This document shows, piece by piece, positions 10,265 to 57,130 of a stretch of 64,000 nucleotides of DNA. Every line of letters begins with the position of its first letter. Position 1 is the stretch's first letter. The stretch covers positions 1-64,000 of the forward strand of contig JBGSPW010000064.1 of the NCBI GenBank assembly GCA_041738395.1, read 5' to 3'. Under the pieces are notes generated by a model. The model had not been told where the DNA came from, made no database searches, and was given only the letters and a program-made list of their open reading frames with translations. The position numbers and the translations under genes are program-made. This DNA comes from Thermoflexales bacterium (lineage in GTDB: Bacteria; Chloroflexota; Anaerolineae; Fen-1058).

Positions 10265-11260
<996 letters not shown>

Positions 11261-29877: not shown

Positions 29878-30258
29878 CGGCTGATGATGGCCTTCAAAGA
29901 CGGTGCCGCTCAGATCATCAAATTAACAACCGCAGGCCTTTCACTGATAGCGCTGCCGATGGGCTGGGTGCGTGTGAAAGCCGCGCTTGGTAATCTCCGT
30001 GGTGGGGCAGGCCTATTCACTGCTTCAAAACGAATCGGTCAACTAACGAAGTGCCCTCGGTGGGAGTCGAACCACATACATCTGATCCGACGTCAGGCGC
30101 TCAAAACACCAAACGCCCGGCGTACCGGGCGTTATAGTCGAGCTCAAGAGTGAGCACCCAAACAAAAACTACCCTGTGCCCAAATGGGATGTATATGCTT
30201 GGTAAGGCAAACCCCATGGTGCCAACAAATGCCCTTAGCGAGGATTGCTTATATTGAG

Positions 30259-30331
30259 AGCGGGAGACGAGACTCGAACTCGCGACAGCTTGCTTGGAAG
30301 GCAAGAGCTCTACCAACTGAGCTACTCCCGC
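30259..30331 (-). tRNA. tRNA-Gly (anticodon UCC).
   Basis: Reverse complement is GCGGGAGTAGCTCAGTTGGTAGAGCTCTTGCCTTCCAAGCAAG...GTTCGAGTCTCGTCTCCCGCT. The cloverleaf folds with anticodon loop cuUCCaa. Confidence 0.85.
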
Positions 30332-30336
30332 ATCAG

Positions 30337-30410
30337 TCGGGGCGGAGGGACTTGAACCCACGACCCCACGGTCCCAAACCGTGTGCGCTACCGGACTGCG
30401 CTACGCCCCG
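30337..30410 (-). tRNA. tRNA-Pro (anticodon UGG).
   Basis: Reverse complement is CGGGGCGTAGCGCAGTCCGGTAGCGCACACGGTTTGGGACCGTGG...GGTTCAAGTCCCTCCGCCCCGA with anticodon loop uuUGGga. There is one U-U mismatch in the T-stem. Confidence 0.75.
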
Positions 30411-38542: not shown

Positions 38543-39157
38543 TTACTCTGCCTGATCGAGCGAATCGATCGGATGGAAGGAATGCTGGCAAGCCTCGCAG
38601 ATGATCGCGCTGTTGTCGAGTACCGCGCGGTTCACCAAAATCACACGGGCGGGCAAACACAGACAGCAGGCCAGCACGCGATCCCCGGCCGCGGCTTCGC
38701 CGAGGTTCTCGATCAGATCGGCGGCCAGAATCAGGCCGACGTTGTGTTCGATCGCGGTTGCCAGCGGCGCGAACAACGCCTGCCAGCGCTGCTTGGTCTC
38801 GGGCGATAAGGTCCAGTAGCCGCGATCGGTCACGGGATCGTGCGCCAGAATCAAGCCGCACGGCTGCGCATAGGTCGGCGAGTAACGCCCCACCGCGTCA
38901 ACCACCTCCAACAGCATATTCGCCACAATCGTTTCCGCGGCGCGATCGGGCGCGTTGAGATCGGCGCCGTCGAACAATGAAAGCAAATCGGGCAAATCAG
39001 GAATGACGTCATACGCGCGGCACATCGCCAACCAGGCGTGCTGCAGCGCATCGAGCAGATCGATCGACGAATCGGCATCCGAGCGCCCGATCGGCAGATC
39101 ATTCTTCCCCGGCCCCGGGCGCGTGGTGGGCGGGCCGAGGGGTTTATGGGTATACAT
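38543..39157 (-). CDS. Hypothetical protein whose start overlaps the last codons of hdrCB by 14 nt.
   Basis: 204 aa with a C-terminal CEACQHSFHP motif. No confident family. Confidence 0.4.
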   Translation of the reverse strand: MYTHKPLGPPTTRPGPGKNDLPIGRSDADSSIDLLDALQHAWLAMCRAYDVIPDLPDLLSLFDGADLNAPDRAAETIVANMLLEVVDAVGRYSPTYAQPCGLILAHDPVTDRGYWTLSPETKQRWQALFAPLATAIEHNVGLILAADLIENLGEAAAGDRVLACCLCLPARVILVNRAVLDNSAIICEACQHSFHPIDSLDQAE

Positions 39158-40601
39158 CGGTTAATCCCCCTCTGTTGAGGGGATGAGCTTCCCCCCCTTG
39201 TGCGACGGAATAGCTTAACCCCTTCGCTTCCAGCATCGGTCGTGGATCAACCAGGTTCTTGTTCAACGCCGCTTTCTCCGGCACACCCAACGCCAGCGCC
39301 ATCAATTGCGTGAAGTACAACACCGGCAGTGGTTCGGCTAATTTCATCTGGAATTGGCGCGCGTCGAGATTCGAATGGCACATGGGGCACGCGACGGCGA
39401 TTGCATCGGCGCCCGCCTCACGCGCATGCTCGATCAGATCGCTGCTCAACTTCAGCACGATGTCCGGTCGCGTGAGTGAATGAGCCGCGCCGCAACACGA
39501 CGTCTTGTATGACCAATCGCGCACCTCGGCGCCCAGCGCCACCATCAACTGATCCATGTCCGTCGGATTTTCAGGATGCGGCGCTTCGGTGACTTGCGGC
39601 GGACGGGTAAGCAAACAGCCGTAGTAACACACCACGCGCAGGCCCGTCAACGGCTGCTTGACCGCCGCCGCGACCTGCTCTACGCCGATATGCCGGGTGA
39701 TCGATTCGATGAGAGTGGTGACCTGCACCGTGTCGCGGTACTCATAGCCGATCGTCTCACTCACCTCAGCGCGCTGTTCGTCGTTGTGCCGGATTTCGAA
39801 CTGCGCGGCTTTGTGGCGATTGAAGCAGGCCGCGCACGGCATCGTCACTTCCTTGAAGCCGCTCTGCTCGATGAGCGCGAGATTTTCGATCGGCAGGCGC
39901 AGGGCCGCCTCGGGATCGGTGCGATGCGCGGCCGAACTGCCGCAGCACACCCAGCCCCTCGGTTCGATCACGTTCAAGCCCAACGCTTCACACACGGCGC
40001 GCGTGGAGATATCAAATTCAGGCGCGGTGGAATGTAGCGAACAACCGGGATAGTAGGCGACGGCCTCCGTCGCACCGGCGACCGGTTTGGCCCGGTGCGG
40101 CATGCGTGTGGGATGCGGCAGCAAAGAGATTTTATGCTTGCGCAGCATCTTCACGCCCAGGTCCATGTCGCCCAAAATGTTGCGCGTGCGGAGCTTCATC
40201 TCGGCCATCAAGCCCAGTTCATACGCGCGGCCCCACAACTGCACCTCGCGCATGAACGCGACATTGAAGGTATTCACCTCGGGCACTTGCGGCTTGATGC
40301 CACGCGCCCTGGCCTCGCGCGTGAGGAACTCCATAATCGCCGTGATGTCCAATCCTTGTGGACAACGTGTCGTACAAGTCTGGCACGACGCGCACAGCCA
40401 CGGCGTCTGGGAATGCAGCGCCACATCTTCCTGCCCCAGTTGCAAGGCGCGCATCACCTGATTCGGCTGCCAATCGAAGAATTCAGACACAGGGCAGCCA
40501 CTGGTGCACTTCACGCACTGATAACACAGAAAGACATTCTGCCCGGTTTCGTCTTGCACACGTCGCGCAAGCTCAGAATTGACTGGCGTTGCTTCGTCCA
40601 T
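39144..40601 (-). CDS. hdrD: HdrC-HdrB fusion (HdrD/GlpC-like) Fe-S protein with two [4Fe-4S] ferredoxin motifs and two CCG domains.
   Basis: CYQCVKCTSGCP and CASCQTCTTRCP motifs. CCG motifs VCCGSSAAH and SCCGAAHSL. AGGAGG RBS before the ATG at 40601. The upstream Met codons are encoded by the repeat element. Confidence 0.8.
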   Translation of the reverse strand: MDEATPVNSELARRVQDETGQNVFLCYQCVKCTSGCPVSEFFDWQPNQVMRALQLGQEDVALHSQTPWLCASCQTCTTRCPQGLDITAIMEFLTREARARGIKPQVPEVNTFNVAFMREVQLWGRAYELGLMAEMKLRTRNILGDMDLGVKMLRKHKISLLPHPTRMPHRAKPVAGATEAVAYYPGCSLHSTAPEFDISTRAVCEALGLNVIEPRGWVCCGSSAAHRTDPEAALRLPIENLALIEQSGFKEVTMPCAACFNRHKAAQFEIRHNDEQRAEVSETIGYEYRDTVQVTTLIESITRHIGVEQVAAAVKQPLTGLRVVCYYGCLLTRPPQVTEAPHPENPTDMDQLMVALGAEVRDWSYKTSCCGAAHSLTRPDIVLKLSSDLIEHAREAGADAIAVACPMCHSNLDARQFQMKLAEPLPVLYFTQLMALALGVPEKAALNKNLVDPRPMLEAKGLSYSVAQGGEAHPLNRGGLTDVYP

Positions 40602-40623
40602 ATGCGCCTCCTGATTCATCAAC

Positions 40624-40766
40624 GTCATTGCGAGCATCTTTTCGCGAAGCAATCTCAGGCTCGATTAGCGGGGATTGCTTCGTCGCATTCTTCGACTTCG
40701 CTGCGCTCCGCTCACGCCGTATCCGCAAAGCGGCGGCGCGCCGGGCGGAACGCTCCTCGCAATGAC
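40624..40766. repeat. GC-rich nested palindromic element (copy 2) between hdrCB and metF.
   Basis: Perfect 11-bp terminal inverted repeats (gtcattgcgag/ctcgcaatgac). Inner inverted repeat gcgaagcaatc/gattgcttcg. Core shared with 9192-9255. Confidence 0.8.
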
Positions 40767-40776: not shown

Positions 40777-41787
40777 CTACACGATCGGTCGGGGCAGCAA
40801 GCCCGCGCCTTCCACGATCGGCTTGACGGCTTCTTCCCACTCGATCGCCATGATGTGCACCCCGGCCACGCCTTCAATCTCGCGCAGCTGTTGGATCAGT
40901 TCGATGCAAATTTTCATGCCTTCGGCCTGCCACGCACCCGATCGGGCTTTCTTGTCTTCCTTGGTCAGCTCGTCTTTCGACTTGTTCGCCCACGGCGCAC
41001 CGGCTTGCGTCATGCGCTCGATGAGTGGATCGGGGATCCGCAGGCCCGGCACGTTGTCTTTCATGTAGCGCGCCATCGTCGGGCTTTTGAGCGGCCCGAC
41101 CCCCGCCAGGAGGTAGACTTTTTCGTGCAGGCCCAGTTCACGCACCTTCGCCATGAAGGTCTTGAAGCCGTCGATGTCGTAGATGAGCTGCGTCTGAATG
41201 AAGCTCGCACCCGCCTGCACTTTCTTGGCGAGCCGATACGGGCGAAAGTCGATCGGGCTGGCGAAGGGCGACTCCGCAGCTCCGACGAAGAAGCGCGGCT
41301 CTTGTCCCTTGATCGCTTCACCGCACTGGAAGGCGTGCTGATCGCGCAGGGCCGTCACCATCTGCACCATCTGGATCGAATCCATGTCGAAGACGTTCTT
41401 CGCATTGGGATGGTTGCCAAAGGTCTGATGATCGCCCGACAGGCACAGCAGGTTGCGCATGCCCAGCGCATACGCGCCCAGTAGATCGCTCTGCATGGCG
41501 AGACGATTGCGATCGCGGCACGTCATCTGGATGATAGGCTCCAATCCTTCCTGCACCACGAGCGTGCCCGCGCCGATGCTGGACATGCGCACGATGGCCG
41601 TCTGGTTGTCAGTGATGTTCACCGCATCGCAGTTGCCTTTGAGCAGTTTTGCTTTCTTCCGAATCACCTCGACATCAGCGTTTTGCGGCGGGCCAAGTTC
41701 ACCCGTGACGGCAAAGTGGCCGTTCTTCAACACCTTCTCCAGATTCGATCCAGACAGATAGCCGTTGCCGTTAGGTTGTGGAGTCAT
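40777..41787 (-). CDS. metF: Methylenetetrahydrofolate reductase MetF.
   Basis: MTPQPNGNGYLS...FAVTGELGPP...SIQMTCRD... matches the MTHFR fold. GGAGGCA RBS 5 nt before the ATG at 41787. Confidence 0.85.
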   Translation of the reverse strand: MTPQPNGNGYLSGSNLEKVLKNGHFAVTGELGPPQNADVEVIRKKAKLLKGNCDAVNITDNQTAIVRMSSIGAGTLVVQEGLEPIIQMTCRDRNRLAMQSDLLGAYALGMRNLLCLSGDHQTFGNHPNAKNVFDMDSIQMVQMVTALRDQHAFQCGEAIKGQEPRFFVGAAESPFASPIDFRPYRLAKKVQAGASFIQTQLIYDIDGFKTFMAKVRELGLHEKVYLLAGVGPLKSPTMARYMKDNVPGLRIPDPLIERMTQAGAPWANKSKDELTKEDKKARSGAWQAEGMKICIELIQQLREIEGVAGVHIMAIEWEEAVKPIVEGAGLLPRPIV

Positions 41788-41799
41788 CGATGCCTCCTG

Positions 41800-41872
41800 A
41801 ATTCGGAATGTGGAATGCGGAATACGGAATGCCCCATTCCGAGTTCCAAATTCTGCATTCCGAATTAATCTA
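41800..41872. repeat. Palindromic element built from GGAATG/CATTCC heptamer-like units in the metV-metF spacer.
   Basis: gaattcggaatgtggaatgcggaatacggaatgccccattccgag...cattccgaatt. Confidence 0.8.
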
Positions 41873-42556
41873 TCATTCTTCTTCCGCTGCCAGTCGCAGA
41901 TCAGGCCGAACAATTTTACGCGGGCCGCCGTCACGTGACGTGCGCCAATTCTTGGGCGGCTGGATCTCCAACAGCCGATCAAGCTTGCCCATGTGATCCA
42001 GCCGATCGTAGATGAGCTGCCACGCGCAGGGAATCTCGTCGTTGATCTCGCAGTGCCCGTCTTCCGATCCGCCGCACGGGCCATTGAGCAGCGACTTCGA
42101 GCAGCGCGCGATCGGACAGATGCCGCCCGTCAAACCGAGGATGCAATCGCCGCAGGCCGCGCAGCGCTCCGTCCACACGCCCTGCTCCACCGGCAGGCCG
42201 AGGAACTTGGTGTTGAGGCCGGGCACGATCCAGGCATCGGGAAAATGCTCGGCCAGCGCCTGCACGCCGATGCCGCAGCCCAGCGACAGCACCACGTCGA
42301 CGACGCCCACTTGCTCGGCAATCTCGTCGAGGTATTCCCATTCGCACTGGCGCTGTACGGTCACATCGGTCACGTCCTTGGCGCCGCCGTCGAGTTTGGT
42401 CGCCATGCGCAATGACGCCGCGACAATCGCGGCTTCGCGCGCGCCGCCCGCAAAGCAGACAGTCACACAGGTGCCACAGCCCGCGACCAGCACCTTCTGC
42501 GCGTCGCCGATCAACGTCTTGATTTCTGCTAAGGGTTTCTGTTCGGCTACGATCAT
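41873..42556 (-). CDS. metV: MetV-like protein (MTHFR C-terminal-domain, Cys-rich zinc-binding), the small subunit partner of MetF.
   Basis: Cys clusters CGTCVTVC, CAACGDCILGLTGGICPIARCSKSLLNGPCGG and CEINDEIPC. GGAGAG RBS before the ATG at 42556. Confidence 0.7.
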   Translation of the reverse strand: MIVAEQKPLAEIKTLIGDAQKVLVAGCGTCVTVCFAGGAREAAIVAASLRMATKLDGGAKDVTDVTVQRQCEWEYLDEIAEQVGVVDVVLSLGCGIGVQALAEHFPDAWIVPGLNTKFLGLPVEQGVWTERCAACGDCILGLTGGICPIARCSKSLLNGPCGGSEDGHCEINDEIPCAWQLIYDRLDHMGKLDRLLEIQPPKNWRTSRDGGPRKIVRPDLRLAAEEE

Positions 42557-42630: not shown

Positions 42631-43065
42631 TCAATCAGCAATTCGCAGAGGATTTGCTCCCAACGCCTCAATCTTTTCTGTCATTTCCGTTGTCGCCGTC
42701 ACAAACTGATTGGCCATCGCCGACGACAGATTGAACATAGCGACTCGCTCCGGTTCAAGTCCAATCTGCCTGAGCAAGTCCTTCACGTACGCCACTCGGC
42801 GTTTGGCGTTAGCATTACCTTCCAGGTAATGACAGTCGCCGGGCAGTCAACCCGCCACCATGATGCCGTCCGCGCCGTCTTCTATCGCACGGAGTACGGT
42901 CAGCACATCCATCCGGCCTGTGCACGGTATCTGCACGATCTTGATCGCGGGCGGGTATTGCATCCGCAACCCGCCGGCTAGATCGGCGGCCGCGTAGGCG
43001 CAGTGCTCGCAGCAATAGGCGATGATGTTGAGTTGGTTAGCACGTACAGATGCAACGTCGTTCAT
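42631..43065 (-). CDS. mvhD: MvhD-family [2Fe-2S] protein with an in-frame TGA (42847-42849) at the conserved Cys position. Putative selenoprotein.
   Basis: ...PCTGRMDVLTVLRAIEDGADGIMVAG-[TGA]-LPGDCHYLEGNANAKRR... aligns with MvhD consensus GADGVLVAGChxGDCHY. A hairpin (cattaccttccaggtaatg) lies 15 nt downstream of the TGA, at plus 42814-42832. The open frame continues to a TGA stop at 42631. Confidence 0.7.
42814..42832 (-). promoter_or_regulatory. Putative bacterial SECIS hairpin downstream of the mvhD copy-1 UGA.
   Basis: Perfect 7-bp stem CAUUACC/GGUAAUG with a 5-nt loop, starting 15 nt 3' of the UGA. Confidence 0.55.
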
Positions 43066-43155: not shown

Positions 43156-43932
43156 TCATCTTGAATTGAACAAAGCCATTTCGATATCACATGGCCGAAA
43201 CTTGGACTCGATATTCTCCCCAGCAGCATCAACGTCATTGAAAGTAAGACGCGCGTTGTTTAGCGCTGCTGCCTCTGCCTGCAAAAAGGGAACATATTCC
43301 GTGTAGTACTTATTGATGTTCACGCTTAGATCGCTGATATAGCCATCTTCCGTTCGGAGACTGAGCGTAGTAATACCATTTTTCTGTGTGAAATCATTGA
43401 CGACGTGCTTATCCATGATGCCATAATCATTCGGATACAAGAAACGAAGAAATGCTGTTGCAGTAGGGATTCTCACACCACCAATCCGGAACTTTTTTAG
43501 ACTTGACTCTCTGTATGCGTCAAGCAATTGCACATGTGCATCTTGTGCCCATTTTGCGCGCACATTCTCGACACTGCGTGATGTTCTGGATTTCTGCGAG
43601 GCCATTTTCCAATGCACAATTGCGCAGGTCACGCTCTTTAGGTTGCCAAGACGATCGCCTGTCCATTGACCACTCTCGTTAGCGCGACTACAGTCTTCAA
43701 AGACTGATCGGCTTATTACTTCAAACTTCCGCAAATTGACCCCACGCGGATAGCTCTGAGGAATGGCGGCCGGAAATATACCCGCGAATGTCCCAACATA
43801 CGGCAAGTCGTCAGTTTGAATGACTGTAAATTGCACTTCGCAGTCTCGGTAGTTATAGGCTTGTCTTTGCGCGACGTAACTGTTCAGAGGGATAAGGGTC
43901 ATAGGTATACTCCATCTACATACCCAAGCCAA
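43156..43932 (-). CDS. Hypothetical protein encoded by an AT-rich (about 45% GC) insert between hdrL1 and mvhD. Possible defense or restriction-related protein.
   Basis: GC content drops sharply relative to the 62% flanks. 258 aa with no confident family. The only motif noted is YPNDYGIMDKHVV. Confidence 0.45.
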   Translation of the reverse strand: MAWVCRWSIPMTLIPLNSYVAQRQAYNYRDCEVQFTVIQTDDLPYVGTFAGIFPAAIPQSYPRGVNLRKFEVISRSVFEDCSRANESGQWTGDRLGNLKSVTCAIVHWKMASQKSRTSRSVENVRAKWAQDAHVQLLDAYRESSLKKFRIGGVRIPTATAFLRFLYPNDYGIMDKHVVNDFTQKNGITTLSLRTEDGYISDLSVNINKYYTEYVPFLQAEAAALNNARLTFNDVDAAGENIESKFRPCDIEMALFNSR

Positions 43933-43936: not shown

Positions 43937-46900
43937 TTATCTGGTAGCTACAGTTTCTTTCACGGGCATGAATCGGCCCGATGGCTCCAACAACGCCTGC
44001 ACCTTCATCACCATCTGCGCATCCGTGTAGTGCATCAACTGAATCGCTTGCGCGGGACATTCGGCCACGCACGAGCCGCAACCCTGGCAGATCGCCGCTT
44101 CGATGTAGGCCGCACCCATAATGCTGCCCACGCCCGTCAAGTTCGCTTTGATCTTCGGCACGCCGAACGGGCAGATGCGCACGCACGTCAAGCAGCCGGT
44201 GCACTTCGCGTCATCCACTACTGCGACACGCCCACCCGCGACTAAAGACTCACGACTCAACACGCGCGCGGCGCGTGCGGCGGCGGCCTGCGCTTGAATC
44301 ATCGTCTCATCCAGCAGCTTCGGATAATGCGCCATACCCGCCATGAACACGCCATCGGATGCAAAATCGACCGGGCGCAGTTTGACGTGCGCTTCGAGGA
44401 AGAAGCCGTCGGCGTCGAGCGCGACTTTGAACAATTTCGCCACCTCGTGCGCATCGTCGCGTGGCACGACGGGCATGGACAGGACGACGAGATCGGGCTG
44501 CAGGGTGATGGTGCGCTGCAAGATGGAATCCCATGCTTGAACGACGATTGGGGAACTCGGAATTTGGAATTCGGAATTCGGATTGTTGATAATCACTTCC
44601 GGTTTATGATTGTCATCGTAGTGGACAAACAACACGCCACGTTCACGCGCGGTGGTATATATCCGTTCTTTGAAGCCATACGTCTGAATGTCTTTGTAGA
44701 GAATGACCACCTGCGCTGCGGGATTGAGTTCTTTGAATTGGATCGCGTTCTTGAGTGCGACGGTGCAGCAAATGCGGCTGCAGTATTTTTCCGCCGGGCC
44801 GACGCATTGGATCATGACGACTGAATGCGGAATGCGGAATGCGGAATGCGGAATGGAAAGCAACGACTCGAATTGCTGTTGAGTGATGATGTTCGGATGA
44901 GTGCCGAATCCATAATCCGGGCCGCGATATTCCTGTGCGCCTGTTGCTAGAATCGTGACGCCGTGCTGTATTTCTTGCATCTTGCATCCTACATCTTGCA
45001 TCTTGCATCCTGCATCTTGCTTCCCGCCTCTTGCATCCTGCGAAGCGTCCCCGTGGGATTGTATCTTGCTGATAAAATTGCCCATGAAGCCCGTCGTCGC
45101 TGCGACCTGGCTGTCGAGATAAACCGTGATGGAAGAGTTGTGCTCAACTTGATCAATCAGTTGCTTCAAGACGATTTGCGGATCTTGGGTCCCCTCTTCC
45201 ATCCCCCTCGCACGCGGGAGGGAAACCAGGACCCGCCGCAGATTGCCGCCGAGTTCATGCGCCTGCTCGACGAGATGAACGGGGAAGCCTTGATCGGCCA
45301 GCGACACAGCCGCGGTCATGCCGGCCGCGCCCCCGCCGACGATCAGGGCAGCGCGCTTCACCGGCACATCGATCAGGTGCTGCGGTTCAAGCAGCGCTGC
45401 GCGCGCCACCGCCATACGCACCAGGTCTTCAGCCTTCGCAGTGGCAACGTCCCAATCATGCGAATGAACCCACGAGCACTGATTGCGGATGTTCGCCATC
45501 TCGAACAGATAGGGATTCAAGCCGGCGTTGCGCAGGCAATCCTGAAACAGCGGCTGATGCGTCAAGGGAGTGCAGCTGGCCACCACCACGCGATTGAGAT
45601 GCTGCTCTTTGATCTGTTCGACGATGTGCTTGATGCTGTCTTGCGAGCACGCATACAAATTTGACTCGGCGTGAACCACGCCCGGCAGCGTCTTCGCATG
45701 GGCGGCAACCTGGGGCACATCGAGGAAGCCTGCGATATTCGAGCCGCAGTGGCACACAAACACGCCGATGCGCGGCTCTTCTTCGCGCACATCTCGCTCC
45801 GCTGGAAATTCCGGGCGCGTGGTCAACGCGAAGCGCGCCGTGCCGAGGCGTGTGGCAGCGGCGGCGGCGGCTCCGCTCGCTTCCACGACCGATTCAGGAA
45901 TATCCTTCGGTTCGCGGAACGGCCCGACGGCGTAGATGCCCGGTCGGCTAGTTTCCAACGGATTGAACTGCACCGTGTGACAGAAACCATATTCGTCGAG
46001 TTCGATCCCCAGGCGTTTGCCCAACGCGCGCACTGATTCGGAAATCTTCATACCGACGGATAACACGACCAGATCAAATTGTTCTTCGACAAGATCGAGT
46101 CCGGCGTCATTGCGAGGAGCGCTTCCTGAGCGGAGCAGAGCGTAGTCGAAGGACAGCGACGAAGCAATCTCCGGCTGTTCGGGACTGAGATTGCTTCGCA
46201 TCCTTCGACTACGCGGCGAACAGATGCCGCTCCACTCAGGACGCTCGCAATGACGGGCATCGGACTGATACCGAACGATCAGATTGTGAGTCTGTGGATT
46301 TTCATGCAGCTCGCTGATGCGACAGCGCGTGTAGTGAATACCGTACCGATCGCGCGCCCGTTCGAAGTAAGACCAGTAGCCCTTGCTGAACGCGCGCATG
46401 TCCATCATGAAGACCTGCACGTCCAGATCAGGTTGATGCTCTTTGGCGATCACTGCTTCTTTGGTCGCATACATGCAGCACACCGCCGAGCAGTAATCGT
46501 GCGTTTGATCGCGCGAGCCGACACATTGCAGGAAGGCAATCCGCTTTGGCGCTGCGCCATCCGATGGACGCCGTACCTGTCCCAGCGTCGGACCGGACGC
46601 CGACAACAACCGCTCGAATTGCAGCGCCGTGACCACGTTCGGATAACGACCGAAGCCATATTCGCGCGACAATGCCGCTTGATACACCTGATAGCCTGGA
46701 GCAAGGATGACAGCGCCGACGTCGATCTTTTCCTCGCGCGCGACCATGTTGTGATCGATCGCATCAACGCCGCAGGCATACACACACGCCAGGCACTCTG
46801 AGCAGATACCGCACTGCAGGCAGCGCTGCGCTTCGGCGCGGGCCTGCTGCTCGGTCAGCCCCAGCACCACCTCGCGGAAGCTGGTCACGCGTTCGGCCAT

Positions 46901-48724
46901 CGGTAGTAAGGCCGGTTGCGCCTTCGGCTGCAAGCGAATCTCTCCGCGCTGCACACGCTGCGTGATCTCTTCGCGCGTGAACTTCGCCACGGGCAGCGCC
47001 GGACGCGCCGGTTGATCGAGCGCCTCATGCTGCAAGTAACGCTGAATCGAAACCGCCACGCGATGCCCCAGCGCCACCGCCTCGATAATGTAGCTGGCTC
47101 CGGTCTTGCGGCCACCAACCACGAAGAGGCCGGGAATCTTGCTAGCCAAGGTCTTGTGATCGACGGCGAGATCGTCGAAGGCCGGATCGAGGAAGTTCAA
47201 ATCCGAGAATTGCCCCACCGTGACGATCACCGTATCCAGTTCCAGCGTGAACTCGGTGCCGGCCTCGATGGTCGGCCGGCGGCGGCCATGCGCATCCGTC
47301 GTCAGGCCACTGCCCGTCTGCGCCAGTTCCACGCCGGCCACCTTTCCGTTCTTCGCTAGAATGCGCGTGACCGTCGTATGTTCATGCAAATGAATGCCCT
47401 CGCTCTCGATGGCCGCCATCTCCCATTCATACGCCGGGATTTCGCCGCGGGGCCGATCGAGCACCAGGTAGACTTCAGCCGCGCCCAAACGTCGCGCGAC
47501 AGCTGCCGCATCCAACGCCGTGATGCCGCCGCCGATCACCGTTACGCGATTACCGATCACGATCGGTTCGCCGAGATTGATCTTGCGCAGGAAGGTGGCG
47601 GCCGAAATCACACCTGCGGCGTCTTCACCCTCAAGCCCGATCGCTGGATCACGCGACGAGATCCCCGTCGCCAGGCAGACGGCGTTGTAGCCCTGCTTCA
47701 ACAGTTGCGCCGGGTCCTTGATCGGCGAGTTGGTCTTGAGCACCACACCCAACGCCAGGATGTCGTCGATGTCCTGCTGCAGCACGCCCTTGGGCAGGCG
47801 ATGCGCGGGAATGCCGACCCGCATCATGCCACCGGCCACCGGCAGCGCTTCGTAGACGGTGACGCCGTAACCTTGCTTTACCAGATCATGCGCCGCCGTC
47901 AGACCGGCCGGGCCGGCCCCGATCACGGCCACCCATTCGGGACGCGTACGCGCGATCGGGGTGACCGGTTCACGCCCATAGGCCAGCGCATAATCCATCA
48001 CGAAGCGCTTGAGCGACATGATGCCTACCGCTTCATCGGCCAAGGCGCGCGTGCAATGTCCCTCGCAGGGATGATGACATGTGCGGCCACACACGCTGGG
48101 GAATGGATTGTCTTCTTTGATCGTGCGGAAGGCCTCGCGATAACGGCCCTGTGCGATCAACGCGATGTAACCTTGCGCGCGCTGTCCAGCCGGACAAGCA
48201 TCACGACACGGCGCGACACCGCGTTTCTCAATCGCATAAGCCGACGGCACCGCCTGAGCATACAGCCGATAAGCTGCCCGGCGATCCTTCAGCCCTTCTT
48301 CGTAGAGATCGGGCAACACGATCGGGCAAACCTTGGCGCAATCGCCGCAGCCTACACATTTGGTCACATCGATGTAACGCGGCCTGCGGCGCACGGATAC
48401 CGTGAAGTTTCCGGCCTGCCCTTCGACGCCCAGCACGTCGGTATCGGTGAGAATGTCGATGTTGAGATGACGTCCGGTTTCGACCAGGCGCGGGCTGATA
48501 TTGCACATCGCGCAATCGTTGGTGGGGAACGTCTTGTCCAACTGTGCCATGTGCCCGCCGATGGCCGACTTCTCTTCGACGAGATAGACCTTGAAGCCCT
48601 GATCGGCGAGATCGAGCGAAGCCTGCATGCCGGCAATCCCACCGCCGACGACCATCACCGCGCCGACTGGTGTCGATTGGCTTCGAGGTATTTGATTCAC
48701 GTCGATTGGACTTGTGATGTCCAT
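43937..48724 (-). CDS. hdrL: HdrL-type giant flavoprotein (1595 aa). It comprises an HdrA-like N-terminal FAD/Fe-S module, a GltD-like NAD(P)H-binding domain, a full HdrA core, a second FAD-binding module and a C-terminal di-cluster ferredoxin.
   Basis: VVGGGIAGMQASLDLA...TFPTNDCAMC. CVGCGDCAKVCP. GltD-like CPAGQRAQGYIAL...AVIGAGPAGLTAAHDL. CLQCGICSECLACVYAC...FLQCVGSRD...CSAVCCMYATKEA. C-terminal CTGCLTCVRICP...CQGCGSCVAECP. Confidence 0.8.
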   Translation of the reverse strand: MDITSPIDVNQIPRSQSTPVGAVMVVGGGIAGMQASLDLADQGFKVYLVEEKSAIGGHMAQLDKTFPTNDCAMCNISPRLVETGRHLNIDILTDTDVLGVEGQAGNFTVSVRRRPRYIDVTKCVGCGDCAKVCPIVLPDLYEEGLKDRRAAYRLYAQAVPSAYAIEKRGVAPCRDACPAGQRAQGYIALIAQGRYREAFRTIKEDNPFPSVCGRTCHHPCEGHCTRALADEAVGIMSLKRFVMDYALAYGREPVTPIARTRPEWVAVIGAGPAGLTAAHDLVKQGYGVTVYEALPVAGGMMRVGIPAHRLPKGVLQQDIDDILALGVVLKTNSPIKDPAQLLKQGYNAVCLATGISSRDPAIGLEGEDAAGVISAATFLRKINLGEPIVIGNRVTVIGGGITALDAAAVARRLGAAEVYLVLDRPRGEIPAYEWEMAAIESEGIHLHEHTTVTRILAKNGKVAGVELAQTGSGLTTDAHGRRRPTIEAGTEFTLELDTVIVTVGQFSDLNFLDPAFDDLAVDHKTLASKIPGLFVVGGRKTGASYIIEAVALGHRVAVSIQRYLQHEALDQPARPALPVAKFTREEITQRVQRGEIRLQPKAQPALLPMAERVTSFREVVLGLTEQQARAEAQRCLQCGICSECLACVYACGVDAIDHNMVAREEKIDVGAVILAPGYQVYQAALSREYGFGRYPNVVTALQFERLLSASGPTLGQVRRPSDGAAPKRIAFLQCVGSRDQTHDYCSAVCCMYATKEAVIAKEHQPDLDVQVFMMDMRAFSKGYWSYFERARDRYGIHYTRCRISELHENPQTHNLIVRYQSDARHCERPEWSGICSPRSRRMRSNLSPEQPEIASSLSFDYALLRSGSAPRNDAGLDLVEEQFDLVVLSVGMKISESVRALGKRLGIELDEYGFCHTVQFNPLETSRPGIYAVGPFREPKDIPESVVEASGAAAAAATRLGTARFALTTRPEFPAERDVREEEPRIGVFVCHCGSNIAGFLDVPQVAAHAKTLPGVVHAESNLYACSQDSIKHIVEQIKEQHLNRVVVASCTPLTHQPLFQDCLRNAGLNPYLFEMANIRNQCSWVHSHDWDVATAKAEDLVRMAVARAALLEPQHLIDVPVKRAALIVGGGAAGMTAAVSLADQGFPVHLVEQAHELGGNLRRVLVSLPRARGMEEGTQDPQIVLKQLIDQVEHNSSITVYLDSQVAATTGFMGNFISKIQSHGDASQDARGGKQDAGCKMQDVGCKMQEIQHGVTILATGAQEYRGPDYGFGTHPNIITQQQFESLLSIPHSAFRIPHSVVMIQCVGPAEKYCSRICCTVALKNAIQFKELNPAAQVVILYKDIQTYGFKERIYTTARERGVLFVHYDDNHKPEVIINNPNSEFQIPSSPIVVQAWDSILQRTITLQPDLVVLSMPVVPRDDAHEVAKLFKVALDADGFFLEAHVKLRPVDFASDGVFMAGMAHYPKLLDETMIQAQAAAARAARVLSRESLVAGGRVAVVDDAKCTGCLTCVRICPFGVPKIKANLTGVGSIMGAAYIEAAICQGCGSCVAECPAQAIQLMHYTDAQMVMKVQALLEPSGRFMPVKETVATR
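44976..45040. repeat. About nine copies of the CATCYTG heptanucleotide tandem repeat inside hdrL1 coding sequence. Three units (21 nt) encode one heptapeptide unit (KQDAGCKMQDVGCKMQ).
   Basis: Plus strand catcttgcatcctacatcttgcatcttgcatcctgcatcttgcttcccgcctcttgcatcctg. Further CGGAATG/GGAATTC tracts lie at 44563-44588 and 44824-44856. Confidence 0.9.
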
Positions 48725-48786: not shown

Positions 48787-49683
48787 TTAACTGCACCGAT
48801 CAGCACGAAAAGATAACGGTGATAGGTTAAACGTATCGACAAAGTCATCCGTAGTGTACTGAGTAAGTAACGGATGCTGAGAGATAGCTGATCTAACCAC
48901 GCAGAGAACAAAGTGCTGGTCAATCTGCGCTTGTTTCACTTCACGTGCAGTAATAATGAATGACTCTATGTCGCCTCTGACGCCTTTGACCTCGACATGC
49001 TTGAATTCAGATCCCTTTTCACAAAGAAGATCAAACCCGCGTTTATCAACTTCTACTGATTGCACTTTCCAGCCGTGTGACTCATAATGCTTCTTGACAA
49101 TAGTGATTGCCGCTTGTTCAACTCTCCGATTGCTCTCTGGTGAGCCAAATCCAGCTCCGACCTTGGTTGCCTGCCCGTTATTCTCGACAAGGTCTACTTT
49201 TGCCTGAATAGGCATGCTTTTAGCTGGCAATGGACGATCCAAAAAATGCGCCCAGTCTCGTTCAAGCTGCTCAGCAATATCTTCTGGAATAGTCCTACCA
49301 GATGCCCGTGGCTCCCAATTCATCCTTGAGTAGATGCCGCTGTTTAGCCGTTCTCTTGGAAATATTCCTTTGTGAGGGTCAAGAATGGTATCAAAGTCCA
49401 CATCTATGTATAAAGCGGATTTACCCTTCTTGCGCGCTGCCGGATTCCAATGCGGTCCCGGACTGACTTTTTCGCTTGTCACTACCCCGGAGGCCATAAT
49501 ACCGCGAGGAGGCTCTTTACCTAGCTTGATGAGAAACACGCGATCGCCTTGAACAATCTTCTTCGTCACACCGCAACTCCAAGAGTCGGAAAGATAGCCA
49601 TATTTTTCAATCTCCTGAATATCTTTCTGAAGACGCTTCCACGGCGTTAGTACTTTATTCCATGTCAGTAGGTAAGTCGCCAT
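48787..49683 (-). CDS. PUA/EVE-like N-terminal domain fused to a DUF3883 (NOV_C, restriction-endonuclease-like) domain. Candidate modification-dependent restriction or defense protein. The gene is AT-rich (about 45% GC).
   Basis: N-terminus LTWNKVLTPW...IVQGDRVFLIKLGKEPPRGIMASGVVTSE is EVE/PUA-like. C-terminus ...KRGFDLLCEKGSEFKHVEVKGVRGD...FIITAREVKQA matches the DUF3883 GyDi...iEVK...E pattern. Confidence 0.5.
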   Translation of the reverse strand: MATYLLTWNKVLTPWKRLQKDIQEIEKYGYLSDSWSCGVTKKIVQGDRVFLIKLGKEPPRGIMASGVVTSEKVSPGPHWNPAARKKGKSALYIDVDFDTILDPHKGIFPRERLNSGIYSRMNWEPRASGRTIPEDIAEQLERDWAHFLDRPLPAKSMPIQAKVDLVENNGQATKVGAGFGSPESNRRVEQAAITIVKKHYESHGWKVQSVEVDKRGFDLLCEKGSEFKHVEVKGVRGDIESFIITAREVKQAQIDQHFVLCVVRSAISQHPLLTQYTTDDFVDTFNLSPLSFRADRCS

Positions 49684-49909: not shown

Positions 49910-51103
49910 CTACGAATCCGTTGCCATCCATTCGCGCCGCCGCATTTCCGGTGTCTGCAAATTGCGCGGAATGATGACCGTGAAGCGTGTGCCTGAACCA
50001 CTTTCATCCGTCGTCACCTTGACGACAATCTGCCCGCTATGCGCATCCATGATTTTTTTGGCGATGGATAAGCCGAGGCCGGTGCCCGGTGTCTCGCCGA
50101 CATTGTCGGCGCGGAAGAAATCTTCAAAGATGTGCGGCAGATCATCGGACGGGATACCGGGGCCTTCGTCGTCGACCTCGAAGGTCAATGAGTCCGGTTC
50201 GTACCGCGCGCGAAAGGTCACCGTACTATCGGGCGGCGCGAACTTGATGGCGTTGTTCAGCAGATTGGTCAAGACCTGCCGCATCCTCCGGCGCGCCCCC
50301 ACGATCGGCTCAAACTTGGGCGGCGGCTCCACCTTGATCCGCACGCCTTTTTCGGCCGCGGCCAAGCGCACATCTTCCAAGGATTCGGTGCCCGCCTCGC
50401 CGGGATCGAACCATTCGAAATCGGCCTGAATCTGCTCCGGGCGCATCCGCGCCAGATCGACCACGTCGCCAATCAGGCCACGCAATTCGACCACGCGCAG
50501 AATGCTGCGCCGCACCATGCGCTGCTGCTTTTCATTCAACTCGCCCGCATAACCGCCGAGGATGGTCTGCAAGTAATTCTCAACGGCGGCCAACGGCCCG
50601 CGCAGTTCGTGCGAGACGATGGACAGAAAATACGTGAGCGTGTCGGTGGCATGCCGATACCGATCGCTGATCAGCGCGGCCTGCCGGTACATCACTTTGA
50701 AGCCCGCTTCGGGATGCGCCCACAGATAAGCGCGCAGCGGCGCACCATCGACCGCGATCACGCGCGCCGGTTCGAGGCACACCGCCGAAGTCGTGTAGGT
50801 ATACGGCGGGGTCAGCGTCGAGAAGCCCGCCATCTCGCCCGGCTCGACGTAGGCGATCGTCGCGTTGCGCGCCGTCGAATGCCGCCCAATCTGGATTTTC
50901 TTTTCCAGCGCCAGTTTGCCCCGTTCGACGATATACATGATCTCGGCCGGTTCGCCTTCCAGCAGCACGGTATCGCCGTCGCGATAAGTCTCTTCGCGGC
51001 AAAACTCCGCAATGGCCGCCAGATCCGTCTCGGAGAGTTCACCGAAAATCTCCGAGCGGCGCAGCCGTTCAGCGGCAATCGACAACGGTGTGACCTTAAG
51101 CAT
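49910..51103 (-). CDS. Sensor histidine kinase with an N-terminal cNMP-binding domain.
   Basis: cNMP-binding-like stretch (IFGELSETDLAAIAEFCREETYRDGDTVLLEGEPAEIMYIVERGKLAL). HisKA H-box (SIVSHELRGPLAA). HATPase motifs (NLLNNAIKF, GTGLGLSIAKKI). Confidence 0.85.
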   Translation of the reverse strand: MLKVTPLSIAAERLRRSEIFGELSETDLAAIAEFCREETYRDGDTVLLEGEPAEIMYIVERGKLALEKKIQIGRHSTARNATIAYVEPGEMAGFSTLTPPYTYTTSAVCLEPARVIAVDGAPLRAYLWAHPEAGFKVMYRQAALISDRYRHATDTLTYFLSIVSHELRGPLAAVENYLQTILGGYAGELNEKQQRMVRRSILRVVELRGLIGDVVDLARMRPEQIQADFEWFDPGEAGTESLEDVRLAAAEKGVRIKVEPPPKFEPIVGARRRMRQVLTNLLNNAIKFAPPDSTVTFRARYEPDSLTFEVDDEGPGIPSDDLPHIFEDFFRADNVGETPGTGLGLSIAKKIMDAHSGQIVVKVTTDESGSGTRFTVIIPRNLQTPEMRRREWMATDS

Positions 51104-51491
51104 GCACGCTCAACAATCTCTCGACGCGACGGAGCAAATCATCCGGTCGGGCCGGTTTCTGGACGTAGTCCTGCACATCCATCGCCATGCCGGTTTCCAA
51201 TTCGTAGCGCCGGCGGCTGGCATCTTCGACGACGGTCGTGAGCACCAGGATCGGCACGGTGGCATAGCGCGGCTCGCTGCGCATCTCGCGGATCACGCCC
51301 CAGCCATCCATACGCGGCATCAACAAATCCAGGATTAAGAGATCCGGCACTTCTTTGGCAACGAGCGCCATGCACTTCTTGCCATCGGGGGCGGTGGCCA
51401 GCCGATAGGGCTGCGATTCCAGGATAGTCGTGATGCCTTCGAGAATGTCGGGGTCATCGTCGACGATCAGAATATACGGTTGATGTTCCAT
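51096..51491 (-). CDS. Single-domain response regulator (REC).
   Basis: ILIVDDDPDILEGI...DLLILDLLMPRMDGWGV. GGAAGG RBS before the ATG at 51491. Confidence 0.85.
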   Translation of the reverse strand: MEHQPYILIVDDDPDILEGITTILESQPYRLATAPDGKKCMALVAKEVPDLLILDLLMPRMDGWGVIREMRSEPRYATVPILVLTTVVEDASRRRYELETGMAMDVQDYVQKPARPDDLLRRVERLLSVHA

Positions 51492-51542
51492 GACTACCCT
51501 TCCTATTCCTGCGCGTACCGTCATTGCGCCGAAGCCATAACG

Positions 51543-51986
51543 TTACTCACTTGCCTTTTCCTGCGCGCCGTTGAGCCTGAGCGGATTGGGACCCAGGCGT
51601 TCAATCTCCGCGGTCAACTCGGCGGCCGACCACGCGAACTGGCCGCCCATCGCCGATGACAGATTGATCATCTGCGCGCGGCGGCCTTCCAGACCGATCT
51701 CTTCCAGCAGCTTTTGCGCGTATTCAATTCGCCGGCGGGCGTTGAGATTACCTTCCAGGTAATGGCAGTCGCCTTCCAGTCAACCCGCCACCAGCACGCC
51801 ATCGGCGCCATCCTCAAAAGCGCGCAGCACATAGAGCACGTCGAGCTTGCCGGTGCACGGCAATTCGATCACCTTAATCGAGGTGGGATACTCCAGTCGC
51901 AGCGCACCGGCCAGATCGGCCGCGGCATACGCGCAGTAACGGCAGCAGAACGCGACAATTTCGGGATTGAAGTGGTCGGACGTCAT
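51543..51986 (-). CDS. mvhD: MvhD-family protein, second copy, with an in-frame TGA (51780-51782) at the conserved Cys position. Putative selenoprotein. Its ATG overlaps the hdrL2 stop codon (ATGA).
   Basis: ...ELPCTGKLDVLYVLRAFEDGADGVLVAG-[TGA]-LEGDCHYLEGNLNARRR... A hairpin (attaccttccaggtaat) lies at plus 51747-51763. Confidence 0.7.
51747..51763 (-). promoter_or_regulatory. Putative SECIS hairpin downstream of the mvhD copy-2 UGA.
   Basis: Same AUUACC-UGGAA-GGUAAU hairpin as in copy 1. It is conserved despite divergence in the flanking codons. Confidence 0.55.
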
Positions 51987-54900
51987 CGTGATACCTCGAT
52001 CTGTTCAATCGGAATGAAGCTGCTCACGTGAGAGGTTTCGTTAAACAACGCATCAATCTTGATCATCGTTTGCGCATCGGTGTAGTGCATCAATTGGATC
52101 GCGTGGGCCGGACATTCGGATGCGCACGAGCCGCAGCCCTGACAAATGGCCGGCTCGATATACGCCGCCCCGATAATACCCCCCGCCCCTGTAAAGTTAC
52201 TTTGCACCTTCGGCACGTCGTAAGGGCAGATGCGCACGCAAGTGAGGCAGCCCGTGCACTTGAGCGGATCGACCACCGCCACGCGCGCATTGCTCAACAT
52301 CGACTCTTGCGACAAGAGGCGCGCGGCGCGTGAAGCCGCGGCTTGCGCCTGCGCGATCGTCTCATCCAGAAATTTCGGATAGTGCGCCATGCCAGCCATG
52401 AATACACCATCGGCCGCAAAATCGATCGGGCGCAGTTTGACGTGCACTTCCAGGAAGAACCCGTCCATGTCCATGGACACTTTGAGCAACGTGCCCAGAC
52501 TACGTGCTCCCGGTGATGGGACGATGGGCGTGCTCAGTACGAGCAGATCGGGATGCAGTTCCAGATCGCGGTTAAGGACCGGTTCGTGAACCCGAATGAT
52601 GATTTTGGAATTCGGAATTCGGAATTCGGATTCCCGATCACTGATCACCGATCCCTGATCTCTGATCTCCACCTCCGGCTTGTGATCGAAATCGAAATGG
52701 ATGAAGCGCACGCCAGCTCGTCGCGCTTCCGTGTACAGCCGTTCCTTGAAGCCATACGTGCGGATGTCGCGATAGATGATCGTGACGTCGGCCGCCGGAT
52801 TCAGCTCTTTGATCTTGAGCGCATTCTTAAGTGCCGTGGTGCAGCACAGGCGGCTGCAGAATTTCTCGGCCGGGCCAACACACTGGATCATGACGATTGA
52901 TTTTTGATTTTGGATTTCTGATTTTGGATTGGCCAGAAACGACTCGAACTCCAACTGGGTCATGATGCCCGGATGCTGACCGTATTTGTATTCTTTGCCT
53001 TTATATTCAACACCGCCCGTAGCGACGATCGTTACGCCGTGGCCTACTTCCTGTATCCTGCCTCCTGCATCCCGCAACTTGCTGGTGAAGTTGCCCTTAA
53101 AGCCACCCAGGCCGATCAGTTCCGTGTTCAGATGCACATCGATCAGCGGATGCTGCTCGACCTTCGTTACGATCTTTTCCAGATAGTTCTGTGGCGTCAG
53201 TGCGGTCCCGTCTCCGTGCAGCGGCACAAAATAGCGCAGCTGGCGCAGATTGCCCCCCAGCGCCTCGGCACGTTCGATCAGATGGACGGGGAAGCCCTGA
53301 TCGGCCAGGGTGAGCGCCGCCGTCATGCCGGCCGCCCCTCCACCGATGATCAACGCCGCCTTGTTGATCGGCACCAGCGAGGTCTTCAACGGTTCGAGCC
53401 GCAGCGCGCGCGCCGCGGCCATGCGCACCAACGCTTCAGCCTTCACCGTTGCGCCGTCTCGATCGCCCGCGTGAACCCACGAACATTGATTGCGGATGTT
53501 TGCCATCTCGAACAAATAAGGATTGAGACCGGCCTGGCGAATGGCATCCTGAAAGAGCGGTTCATGCGTAAGTGGCGTGCACGACGCCACCACTACCCGA
53601 TTGAGCCCCAGCACCTTCACTTGATCGATGATGTGGGCGATCGTATCTTGTGAGCACGTGTATAAGTTGTCTTCCGCATGGACCACGCCGGGCAGCGATC
53701 GCGCATACTCGGCCACCGCGGGCACATCCAGATAGCCGCCGATGTTAGTGCCACAGTGACAGACGAACACGCCAACGCGCGACGTTTCATTAGCCACATC
53801 TCGTTCCGCCGGATACTCTTGAACGCGCGTCAGCGTATGCCGGGCCGGATACAGGATCTGCGCCGCCGCGGCAGCCGCGCCACTCGCTTCGATCACGGAT
53901 TCTGGAATATCCTTCGGTTCGCGGAATGGCCCGGCCACGTAGATGCCCGCGCGGCTGGTCTGCAACGGATCGAACAACGTGGTGTGGCAGAAGCCGTAGG
54001 AATCGAGCTCGATCCCCAGGTTGCGTCCCAGCCGCTTGACGGATTCGGATATCTCCATGCCCACCGACAGCACTACCAGATCGAACTCTTCCTCGATTAG
54101 CTGACTCGATCCTTCATACGGCGCGGCATAACGCACGCGAAGATTCCGCGTGACTGGATCTTCTTTCACATCGCTGAGACGACAGCGAGTGTACTTCACG
54201 CCGTACTTCTTCTCGGCGCGCTGATAGTATTCTTCATAGCCCTTGCTGAAAGCGCGCGTATCCATGAAGAAGACCTGGCACGTGACCTGACCTGCGCCGC
54301 TGCCAGAACGGTCCTCGGCCAACGCATGCTCCATCGTCATGATCGCTTCCTTGGCCGCGTACATGCAGCACACCGACGAGCAATAATCATGGCTTTGATC
54401 GCGGCTGCCCACACATTGCAAGAAGGCAATGCGCTTTGGCTTGGCGCCATCGGCGGGACGCTGGACGTGACCGAAGGTTGGGCCGCTGGCCGATAACATC
54501 CGTTCATATTGCAGCGCAGTCACCACATTGGGATAACGGCCCAATCCATACTCTTCCGACAGATGTGCTTGGTAGACTTCGTAACCCGGCGCGAGGATGA
54601 CGGCCCCGACGTTGATCTTTTCTTCGCGCGCGACCATGTTGTGATCGATCGCATTCGTACCGCAGGCGAACGTGCAGCTCATGCACTCCGAGCAAATCCC
54701 GCAGGCCAGGCAACGCGCGGCTTCTCTTTGCGCCGATTGATCATCGTAGCCCCCTTCGACCTCTACGAAGTTGTCGATGCGCTGCTCGACCGGCAGTTCG
54801 GGCAGCGGCACTCGCGTCTGACGTTTGATCTCGCCCCGCGCGATACGGGCTTCGATCTCTGCGTGTGTCAGCTTCACCACCGGTAATTCGGGATGATGCA

Positions 54901-56674: not shown

Positions 56675-56734
56675 AGCGTTTCGATTGTGACAATAAGTAA
56701 CGAATAATGCGTAAAGAATGAATCCATCGCCGAG

Positions 56735-57130
56735 TTATTTGAGGGCAGCGATAACGGCGTCACGCCACGGCAACAGCAGCGCGACGAGCGCGATCACATC
56801 AAACACCGCGCCGACCTTTGCACCGGGTGCGACAGTATTCCACCACGGCATGATGACGATCAACGATACGATGGCTTGCGCAACTGCTAACATCGGCCAC
56901 CAAGTTTGCTGCATCGCCAGTCCAATGCCCGCGCCCACGGAGCAAATCGCTACGATAAGCCACAACAGCCCGAAGATGTGCCCCACTCCGCTGTGCAATG
57001 TGACCCCTGTCGACAACACCCACGGTCTATTCGAGAACCCAGAGGTATTCTTCGTCCATGACGCCATGAACCCGCTCAGGTGAGCGAGACCGTGCATGAT
57101 AAACGCAGCGATAACAATGAAGTGCAGCAT
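56735..57130 (-). CDS. Small integral membrane protein (four TM segments) between mvhD and hdrL2.
   Basis: 131 aa and hydrophobic. Confidence 0.45.
   Translation of the reverse strand: MLHFIVIAAFIMHGLAHLSGFMASWTKNTSGFSNRPWVLSTGVTLHSGVGHIFGLLWLIVAICSVGAGIGLAMQQTWWPMLAVAQAIVSLIVIMPWWNTVAPGAKVGAVFDVIALVALLLPWRDAVIAALK

Follow-up and report, generated by a model that had tools for sequence, protein, structure and literature searches.

Does an in-frame TGA that ends two short open reading frames (ORFs) in a Chloroflexota genome truncate the genes concerned, or is it read through as an amino acid? The question is raised by a 64,000-nucleotide stretch of a Thermoflexales bacterium (contig JBGSPW010000064.1, positions 1 to 64,000; hereafter the window, to which all coordinates refer). 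In it, two minus-strand ORFs at 42847-43065 and 51780-51986 terminate in TGA, and their frames stay open down to 42631 and 51543, respectively. An earlier note on this DNA, made from the letters alone, had proposed that they are two copies of a selenocysteine (Sec)-containing MvhD, each with a hairpin downstream of the TGA, accompanied by a third paralogue with cysteine. This proposal is borne out by the recurrence of the TGA in relatives, by coding-type selection beyond it, by frozen synonymous sites in the hairpin, and by the position of Sec in the homologous protein VhuD. Both genes are predicted to encode full-length MvhD proteins in which UGA, decoded as Sec, takes the place of an invariant Cys codon, a reading to which we assign a probability of about 93%.

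Two mvhD genes carry an in-frame UGA at the codon of a conserved cysteine

The first gene, mvhD1, occupies 42631-43065 on the minus strand and encodes 144 residues followed by a stop codon, with the UGA at 42847-42849 as residue 73 and a C as the next base. The second, mvhD2, lies at 51543-51986 on the same strand and encodes 147 residues followed by a stop codon, with the UGA at 51780-51782 as residue 69; its ATG overlaps the stop codon of the preceding hdrL2 gene (ATGA). When the TGA is read as Cys, both translations match PF02662 across the TGA and over the entire model (positions 1-123 of 123; E 9e-49 for mvhD1 and 1.8e-45 for mvhD2), and the top PDB matches of the window protein are MvhD and VhuD chains (7bkb_F, 9sfi_K and 5odc_D; E 1e-30 to 1e-37). 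With the UGA rendered as U, both products contain the motif G-U-L-[PE]-G-D-C-H-Y. Against the archaeal VhuD 'exception' model NF045873 the two copies score 157 and 154 bits, under the 215-bit cut-off, so the window proteins do not count as strict VhuD orthologues. The third copy, mvhD3 (57154-57654, minus strand), also belongs to PF02662; it carries a TGC codon at this site in the sequence VVACPIGNCHH, and its homologous codons lack the hairpin described below. The coordinates and frames of the two interrupted ORFs, the MvhD identity of their continuation and the true Cys codon of the third copy are all as the earlier note gave them, and the placement of the TGA at a conserved family Cys, which it also claimed, is confirmed by the homologue comparison that follows.

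Among the 120 best protein database matches, most of them unnamed MvhD proteins and the named ones mostly from Chloroflexi and Anaerolineae metagenome-assembled genomes (MAGs), the residue aligned to the TGA is Cys in 116 and 'W' in the remaining four. The 'W' represents a TGA translated as Trp; for one of the four this was confirmed in the DNA, where the TGA is followed by the same hairpin.

The UGA recurs across Chloroflexota and coding-type selection continues beyond it

Gene callers truncate the TGA forms, which are scarce in protein databases for that reason, and we therefore surveyed orthologues at the DNA level. Surveying GTDB with a single genome for each species yielded 80 loci, to which one further locus (L001) was added; nearly all of the 81 are from Chloroflexota (Anaerolineae, Anaerolineales, Promineifilaceae, Aggregatilineales, Thermoflexus and others). 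A stop codon stands at the Sec position in 76 of the 81, and it is the sole recurrent in-frame stop across the HdrA, HdrL, MvhD, MetV, MetF and HdrCB orthologues of these loci. In a parallel scan of metagenomes, 75 loci could be scored at this codon, giving 74 TGA and one Cys. Three contigs (L010, L033 and L069) share the same TGA, the hairpin and the hdrL–mvhD–metVF synteny, and their record titles name Acidobacteriota or Acidimicrobiia MAGs, which points either to mis-binning of these contigs or to horizontal transfer of the cluster.

The sequence downstream of the TGA behaves as coding sequence. The following 65 codons are free of stops in 145/145 TGA orthologues, and amino-acid identity to the window protein, 75% upstream of the TGA, is 66% downstream. 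Variation past the TGA is highest at third codon positions (0.44, against 0.24 at first and 0.15 at second positions in the 145 loci), and purifying, coding-type selection continues downstream of the TGA. The codons immediately following it (L-P/E-G-D-C-H-Y) are conserved at the protein level, and no start codon separates them from the TGA. In 137/145 orthologues the TGA is directly followed by a C.

A conserved hairpin embedded in the HYLEGN codons is a predicted bacterial SECIS

Downstream of both TGAs, after a spacer of 16 nt, lies a stem-loop of the sequence AUUACC-UGGAA-GGUAAU, which spans nucleotides 20-36 counted from the U of the UGA and presents UGGAA as its apical loop. In mvhD1 the core occupies 42814-42830 on the minus strand, within a putative Sec insertion sequence (SECIS) that we delimit at 42805-42840 from the single-sequence fold, the consensus fold and the frozen synonymous sites. 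The corresponding element of mvhD2 lies at 51738-51773 (minus strand), with its core at 51747-51763. An additional C-G pair (42831/42813) extends the mvhD1 stem to 7 bp (CAUUACC/GGUAAUG). The earlier note had described identical, perfect 7-bp hairpins after both TGAs; the hairpin is indeed present in both, but copy 2 reads GGUAAUC and its stem has 6 bp only. The stem common to the two copies is thus the 6-bp AUUACC/GGUAAU, which a U-A pair may close. A putative lower helix, GGCG/CGCC (42837-42840 with 42805-42808 in mvhD1; the same in mvhD2), is paired in 89% of cells; it shows no compensatory changes, and we treat it as optional. The window contains exactly two instances of TGA-N16-ATTACCTGGAAGGTAAT, where shuffles predict 0.00, and conservation of the predicted hairpin in about 145 independent loci is far beyond chance.

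The hairpin codons and a consensus fold were analysed in 73 distinct TGA sequences. The codon series CAT TAC CTG GAR GGT AAT encodes the conserved HYLEGN motif, in which CAT, TAC, GGT and AAT are each used in 73/73 sequences and CTG in 72/72, while nearby invariant Gly, Asp, Cys and Ala residues each use two to four synonymous codons. The frozen synonymous bases coincide with the two arms of the stem. RNAalifold recovers this hairpin and no other, with 6/6 core pairs invariant, and the whole set contains one compensatory change, at the loop-closing pair of L025. There (L025:3380-3439) the closing pair changes from U-A to A-U as CTG GAA becomes CAG GAT, keeping the pair at the cost of two amino-acid changes.

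Comparison with Cys forms supports a constraint that is tied to the UGA. In the Cys paralogues of the same genomes the equivalent codons are mixed (CAT/CAC, GGN, AAT/AAC) and allow one to three of the six stem pairs, and the hairpin sequence is likewise relaxed in four Cys orthologues (L023, L048, L063 and L094). Two further Cys orthologues retain it: in L037 (L037:2574) the hairpin is unchanged and all six pairs form, and in L004 (L004:971) six pairs are kept, with a single C-to-T change turning a C-G pair into a U-G wobble. The Cys codons at the Sec site of these two are TGT and TGC, respectively. These features suggest that both changed from Sec to Cys recently and still carry a remnant ('fossil') SECIS, a process already described (PMC1794560).

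These observations argue that the hairpin is a bacterial SECIS embedded in the HYLEGN codons, an identification made from folding and codon usage, and they back the SECIS-like element that the earlier note had suspected after each TGA. Bacterial SECIS elements in general, as used by bSECISearch, have a spacing of 16-37 nt and a G within the first two positions of the loop. The apical loop of the window hairpin starts 22-23 nt past the UGA, and a G stands at the start of the loop. Like the fdhF-type bacterial SECIS, it forms a hairpin within the ORF just past the UGA, with a geometry that fits this general description; it differs in its short stem (6-7 bp), in lacking a bulged U, and in having no Rfam model. 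By this mechanism the UGA (codon 73 or 69) would recruit the SelB·GTP·Sec-tRNASec complex through the hairpin 16 nt downstream, to which SelB would presumably bind.

Weighing selenocysteine insertion against other readings of the UGA

Several results count against decoding of the UGA as Sec. No selA, selB, selD or tRNA-Sec gene was found in the 64-kb window or in the 160 fetched loci: ARAGORN detected no tRNA-Sec in the window and 81 loci, and tblastn with E. coli SelB and SelD queries gave no match in the window or loci, a search that is uninformative as it covers only about 0.9 Mb of flanking sequence. Support for the Sec machinery comes from the lineage-level literature only, which reports Sec-specific elongation factors and a Sec-containing formate dehydrogenase (FDH) in Anaerolineales single-cell genomes and A. 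thermophila (PMC4959059), and tRNASec in Chloroflexi (PMC5389517). Taken one sequence at a time, the folds surpass shuffles by no more than a modest margin (z -2.4 for copy 1 and -1.9 for copy 2). Covariation is near zero since the hairpin is invariant, and the support it offers is suppressed synonymous change and not compensatory change. Finally, no SECIS-like family was returned by Rfam for the whole window at the gathering threshold, or for the surroundings of copy 1 at E ≤ 10; these scans returned only two tRNAs and one chance match.

The alternative that survives best, though we consider it improbable, is that the same hairpin directs recoding of the UGA to Cys or another amino acid, for example through a tRNASec-like tRNACys(UCA) and a second SelB. 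Such selC*-type tRNACys species with a UCA anticodon, together with a SelB paralogue, occur in Syntrophobacterales and Desulfobacterales (PMC5389517), and the window gives no sign of which aminoacyl-tRNA is delivered. However, the known systems come from Deltaproteobacteria and Nitrospirae-like contigs and not from Chloroflexi, and they always stand beside a complete Sec system (PMC5389517). In addition, the same position is genuine Sec in VhuD, and both Sec-FDH and SelB have been reported in Anaerolineales (PMC4959059).

It is still less credible that the TGAs are true stops, with the genes truncated, pseudogenised or split into two separately made halves. Standard gene callers do end the ORFs at the TGA, and the single-sequence statistics of the hairpin are weak. 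Against this, the TGA occupies one and the same codon in about 150 independent loci, and the codons beyond it are conserved as protein, with no intervening start and no downstream stops, where a pseudogene would gather stops and frameshifts.

A sequencing or assembly error or a TGA-sense genetic code (code 4 or 25), at which some Joint Genome Institute gene calls that render the codon as Trp might hint, is effectively refuted by the two independent window copies and about 150 loci from unrelated assemblies, by the 18/49 long window ORFs, including genes with full-length Pfam matches, that TGA terminates at the expected protein ends, and by the occurrence of a single recurrent in-frame TGA in the cluster, aligned with Cys and not with Trp or Gly. 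Since TGA is an ordinary stop elsewhere in the window and the mvhD TGA recurs with no stops downstream, truncation, pseudogene formation, sequencing error and a TGA-sense code are practically excluded, and Sec insertion remains our preferred reading. A read-through scan of the window for TGA-containing ORFs gave no other convincing selenoprotein candidate, although the candidates were not individually checked, and the HdrL, HdrA, MetV, MetF and HdrCB orthologues show no recurrent in-frame stops.

Chloroflexota MvhD probably carries a single Sec, at the second Sec position of VhuD

VhuD, with two Sec residues, is listed among the selenoproteins that have been verified by experiment (PMC13188914). 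Its chain in 9sfi_K shows two non-standard residues (X), of which the second aligns with window residue 73 and the first with Cys22. A 2026 review gives an N-terminal CxxU as the family motif for Sec; in the window copies the corresponding residue 22 is Cys. A second Sec at the CxxU position was considered and rejected, as each of the 147 TGA orthologues, like both copies in the window, has a TGC or TGT codon for Cys at residue 22. Of the two Sec positions of VhuD, the Chloroflexota proteins thus use the second alone.

In methanogen MvhD numbering the Sec site corresponds to Cys67, within C67-H68-x-G-D71-C72. Our searches of the literature found no explicit statement of the [2Fe-2S] ligands of MvhD. 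A 2026 structural paper describes Cys16 as an 'additional' conserved Cys between the cluster and the flavin adenine dinucleotide (PMC13580544), and five Cys positions are conserved among the sequences compared, one of them being this non-ligand Cys16. By elimination from that description, residue 73 is probably one of the four [2Fe-2S] ligands.

The window proteins resemble VhuD in belonging to PF02662, in size, in having Sec at the UGA position and in the role of a [2Fe-2S] adaptor to HdrA, which is established for MvhD/VhuD (PMC13518236, PMC6019823). They differ in that VhuD has an additional Sec in its N-terminal CxxU where the window orthologues have Cys. The archaeal SECIS lies in the 3' untranslated region, whereas the window hairpin is of bacterial type and lies inside the coding region; and VhuD partners a [NiFeSe] hydrogenase or FDH, whereas no hydrogenase genes are present here. 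A bacterial MvhD homologue with Sec is known in BamF, from the class II benzoyl-CoA reductase of Geobacter metallireducens, whose [2Fe-2S] cluster likewise feeds an HdrA-like bifurcating flavoprotein (bioRxiv 10.64898/2026.04.10.717634). In BamF, however, Sec19 stands at the non-ligand Cys16 site, equivalent to Cys at window residue 22, and the window Sec is at the Cys67 equivalent.

The Sec-mvhD genes lie in a duplicated hdrL–mvhD cluster with metV and metF

Both interrupted genes form part of a minus-strand cluster in the order hdrA–mvhD3(Cys)–hdrL2–mvhD2(Sec)–response regulator–histidine kinase–hdrL1–mvhD1(Sec)–metV–metF–hdrCB–orf204. The hdrL1 gene (43937-48724; 1595 aa) encodes a fusion of an HdrA-like protein with a GltD/NfnB-like NAD(P)H-binding module, assigned from Pfam and NCBIfam, and contains no in-frame TGA; hdrL2 (51983-56674; 1563 aa) encodes a second HdrL-type fusion, assigned from domain matches and synteny. 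They lie upstream of mvhD1 and mvhD2, respectively, an arrangement conserved in relatives. On the same two kinds of evidence, the gene at 57774-60926 encodes a 1050-aa HdrA-like protein, the partner of the Cys-type mvhD3. Downstream of mvhD1 follow metV (41873-42556; DUF5981, a methylene-tetrahydrofolate reductase C-terminal-type subunit; PF12225 E 2.5e-38, and synteny), metF (40777-41871; methylenetetrahydrofolate reductase; PF02219 E 1.2e-34), and, kept downstream of metF, a fused hdrC/hdrB-like gene (39144-40652) with a 4Fe-4S dicluster domain and two CCG domains. The metF start is probably about 30 codons further in, as the tblastn alignments of relatives begin at about residues 28-36. The response regulator (51096-51524) and the histidine kinase, which has a cyclic nucleotide monophosphate-binding domain (49910-51103), lie between the two hdrL–mvhD units, in the same place as in relatives. 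All five components (metV, metF, hdrA-like, hdrB/C-like and mvhD) are identified by Pfam or NCBIfam and are co-located in the window.

The hdrL–mvhD–metV–metF–hdrCB order is kept in most of the 80 genome loci. Seven relatives (L054, L055, L058, L060, L066, L078 and L081) also have the two-unit order, and most other loci have the one-unit order hdrA–mvhD(Cys)–hdrL–mvhD(Sec)–metV–metF–hdrCB. The group represented by mvhD3 has Cys in 32/32 relatives, is 45-50% identical to the Sec copies and has a different HdrA-like partner gene. The earlier note had seen a Sec/Cys paralogue pattern typical of selenoproteomes here; the Cys copy is instead a separate orthologous group and not a back-up isoform of the Sec proteins.

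The HdrL–mvhD and metVF–hdr contexts of known systems suggest that MvhD1 acts as the [2Fe-2S] adaptor in a methylene-tetrahydrofolate reductase that is linked to NAD(P)H and probably bifurcates electrons. As a small adaptor subunit, MvhD would dock onto HdrA-type flavoproteins. Homology and synteny suggest that MvhD1, together with HdrL1, MetV, MetF and the fused HdrCB, makes up the Chloroflexota form of the HdrABC–MvhD–MetVF methylene-tetrahydrofolate reductase of the Wood-Ljungdahl pathway, and that MvhD2 serves the second HdrL.

The cluster also contains apparent insertions. Between hdrL1 and mvhD1 lies orf258 (43156-43932, minus strand; 258 aa), which has no Pfam, NCBIfam or PADLOC match, a guanine-cytosine (GC) content of 0.45-0.49 against about 0.54-0.62 in adjacent windows, and no counterpart at this site in the closest relative (L002); given the low GC and this absence, it resembles foreign DNA inserted into the operon. 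It ends in a TGA stop, after which 30 codons in frame lead to a TAG abutting the mvhD1 ATG, which is probably a coincidence. A second low-GC gene (about 0.46-0.49; 48787-49683, minus strand) interrupts the pair formed by the histidine kinase gene and hdrL1, which adjoin in relatives; its product has a C-terminal domain of the NOV_C/DUF3883 type and, in PADLOC, weakly matches the HmaA C-terminus. The gap between mvhD3 and hdrL2 (56675-57153) measures about 480 nt, against 30-250 nt in relatives, and includes a 131-aa ORF (56735-57130) for which none of the related loci has a homologue; this ORF is unlikely to be a gene.

Elsewhere in the window, a giant plus-strand ORF of at least 2594 aa (41-7825) with 5'-nucleotidase/metallophosphoesterase, SBP_bac_5 solute-binding and Calx-beta domains reaches the left-hand end, beyond which its true start may lie. 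It is followed on the same strand by a cluster related to cofactor F420 (7838-11260), with a nitroreductase-family protein, CofD, CofC and a luciferase-like oxidoreductase. An IS1595-family transposase gene (29168-29860, minus strand) adjoins tRNA-Gly(TCC) and tRNA-Pro(TGG) at 30258-30410.

Relation to known Sec-MvhD and MetVF systems

Sec-containing MvhD, under the name 'FrhD', was by 2006 the third largest bacterial selenoprotein family, found in Moorella and other Clostridia among others, with one FrhD and one HdrA in the Moorella selenoproteome and eight Sec-FrhD genes in Syntrophobacter fumaroxidans (PMC1794560). Desulfobacterium autotrophicum, in which the HdrL architecture was named, has four Sec-MvhD genes, an mvhD beside nearly every hdrA/hdrL locus and an mvhD after each hdrL (PMC2702500). 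The occurrence of two Sec copies in tandem, which the earlier note had called unusual, is therefore not so: it recurs in the seven relatives named above, and multi-copy genomes have been published (PMC2702500, PMC1794560).

The window shares with D. autotrophicum HRM2 and S. fumaroxidans the presence of multiple mvhD genes in one genome, in both Sec and Cys forms (PMC2702500, PMC1794560), and with the former a giant HdrA/GltD fusion (HdrL) directly followed by mvhD (PMC2702500). These two organisms are Desulfobacterota and not Chloroflexota, and two HdrL proteins of D. autotrophicum also contain Sec, whereas the window HdrL has no in-frame TGA. A search with a Desulfobacterium MvhD for the Sec position used in Desulfobacterota returned Cys forms only, and the D. 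autotrophicum supplements give no Sec positions. With the HdrABC–MvhD–MetVF complex of Moorella thermoacetica and the hdrABC-mvhD-metVF clusters of marine Chloroflexi the window has in common that mvhD adjoins metV, metF and hdr genes, and hdrC and hdrB are also fused in Chloroflexi DscP3 (PMC5736913). It differs from both in that an HdrL-type fusion with an NAD(P)H module takes the place of HdrA, and in having the unit twice. The marine Chloroflexi paper makes no mention of Sec in MvhD (PMC5736913), and according to the 2026 review hydrogenase subunits with Sec, including MvhD/VhuD, occur exclusively in sulfate reducers and methanogens.

Earlier work has thus already described the family, the VhuD-like Sec position, and the multi-copy HdrL/MvhD and MetVF contexts, and the mechanism brings nothing new to Sec biology. 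What may be under-appreciated is the near-universal Sec form in Anaerolineae-type genomes, the restriction of Sec to the presumptive ligand position, and the use of one invariant SECIS.

Implications for Chloroflexota

Among the MvhD orthologues of Chloroflexota-type clusters, the Sec form is found in about 150 of 160 loci. A wider generalization, which we put forward tentatively and regard as rather unlikely to hold as it stands, is that the MvhD partner of HdrL–MetVF in Anaerolineae-type Chloroflexota is nearly always a selenoprotein whose only Sec stands at the presumptive [2Fe-2S]-ligand site equivalent to Cys67, in contrast to the redox-active CxxU site, which BamF uses and VhuD uses in addition. 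If such a lineage-wide Sec-MvhD is real, truncation by gene callers would account for its having escaped notice; the 2026 review still makes the exclusivity statement quoted above.

Standard gene callers leave a stub of 68-72 aa, and mvhD consequently seems missing or broken in Chloroflexota MAGs, which can distort reconstructions of the Wood-Ljungdahl and HdrL–MetVF module. The invariant 17-nt hairpin and the upstream TGA together provide a simple DNA signature, TGA-N16-ATTACCTGGARGGTAAT, for finding Sec-mvhD genes. Were the generalization true, the Wood-Ljungdahl pathway's methyl branch in a phylum-level lineage would be selenium-dependent with no hydrogenase involved, and this dependence would be enforced by one invariant SECIS in the HYLEGN codons. 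The present data by themselves imply a selenium requirement of the HdrL–MetVF module in many Anaerolineae, which is relevant to their cultivation.

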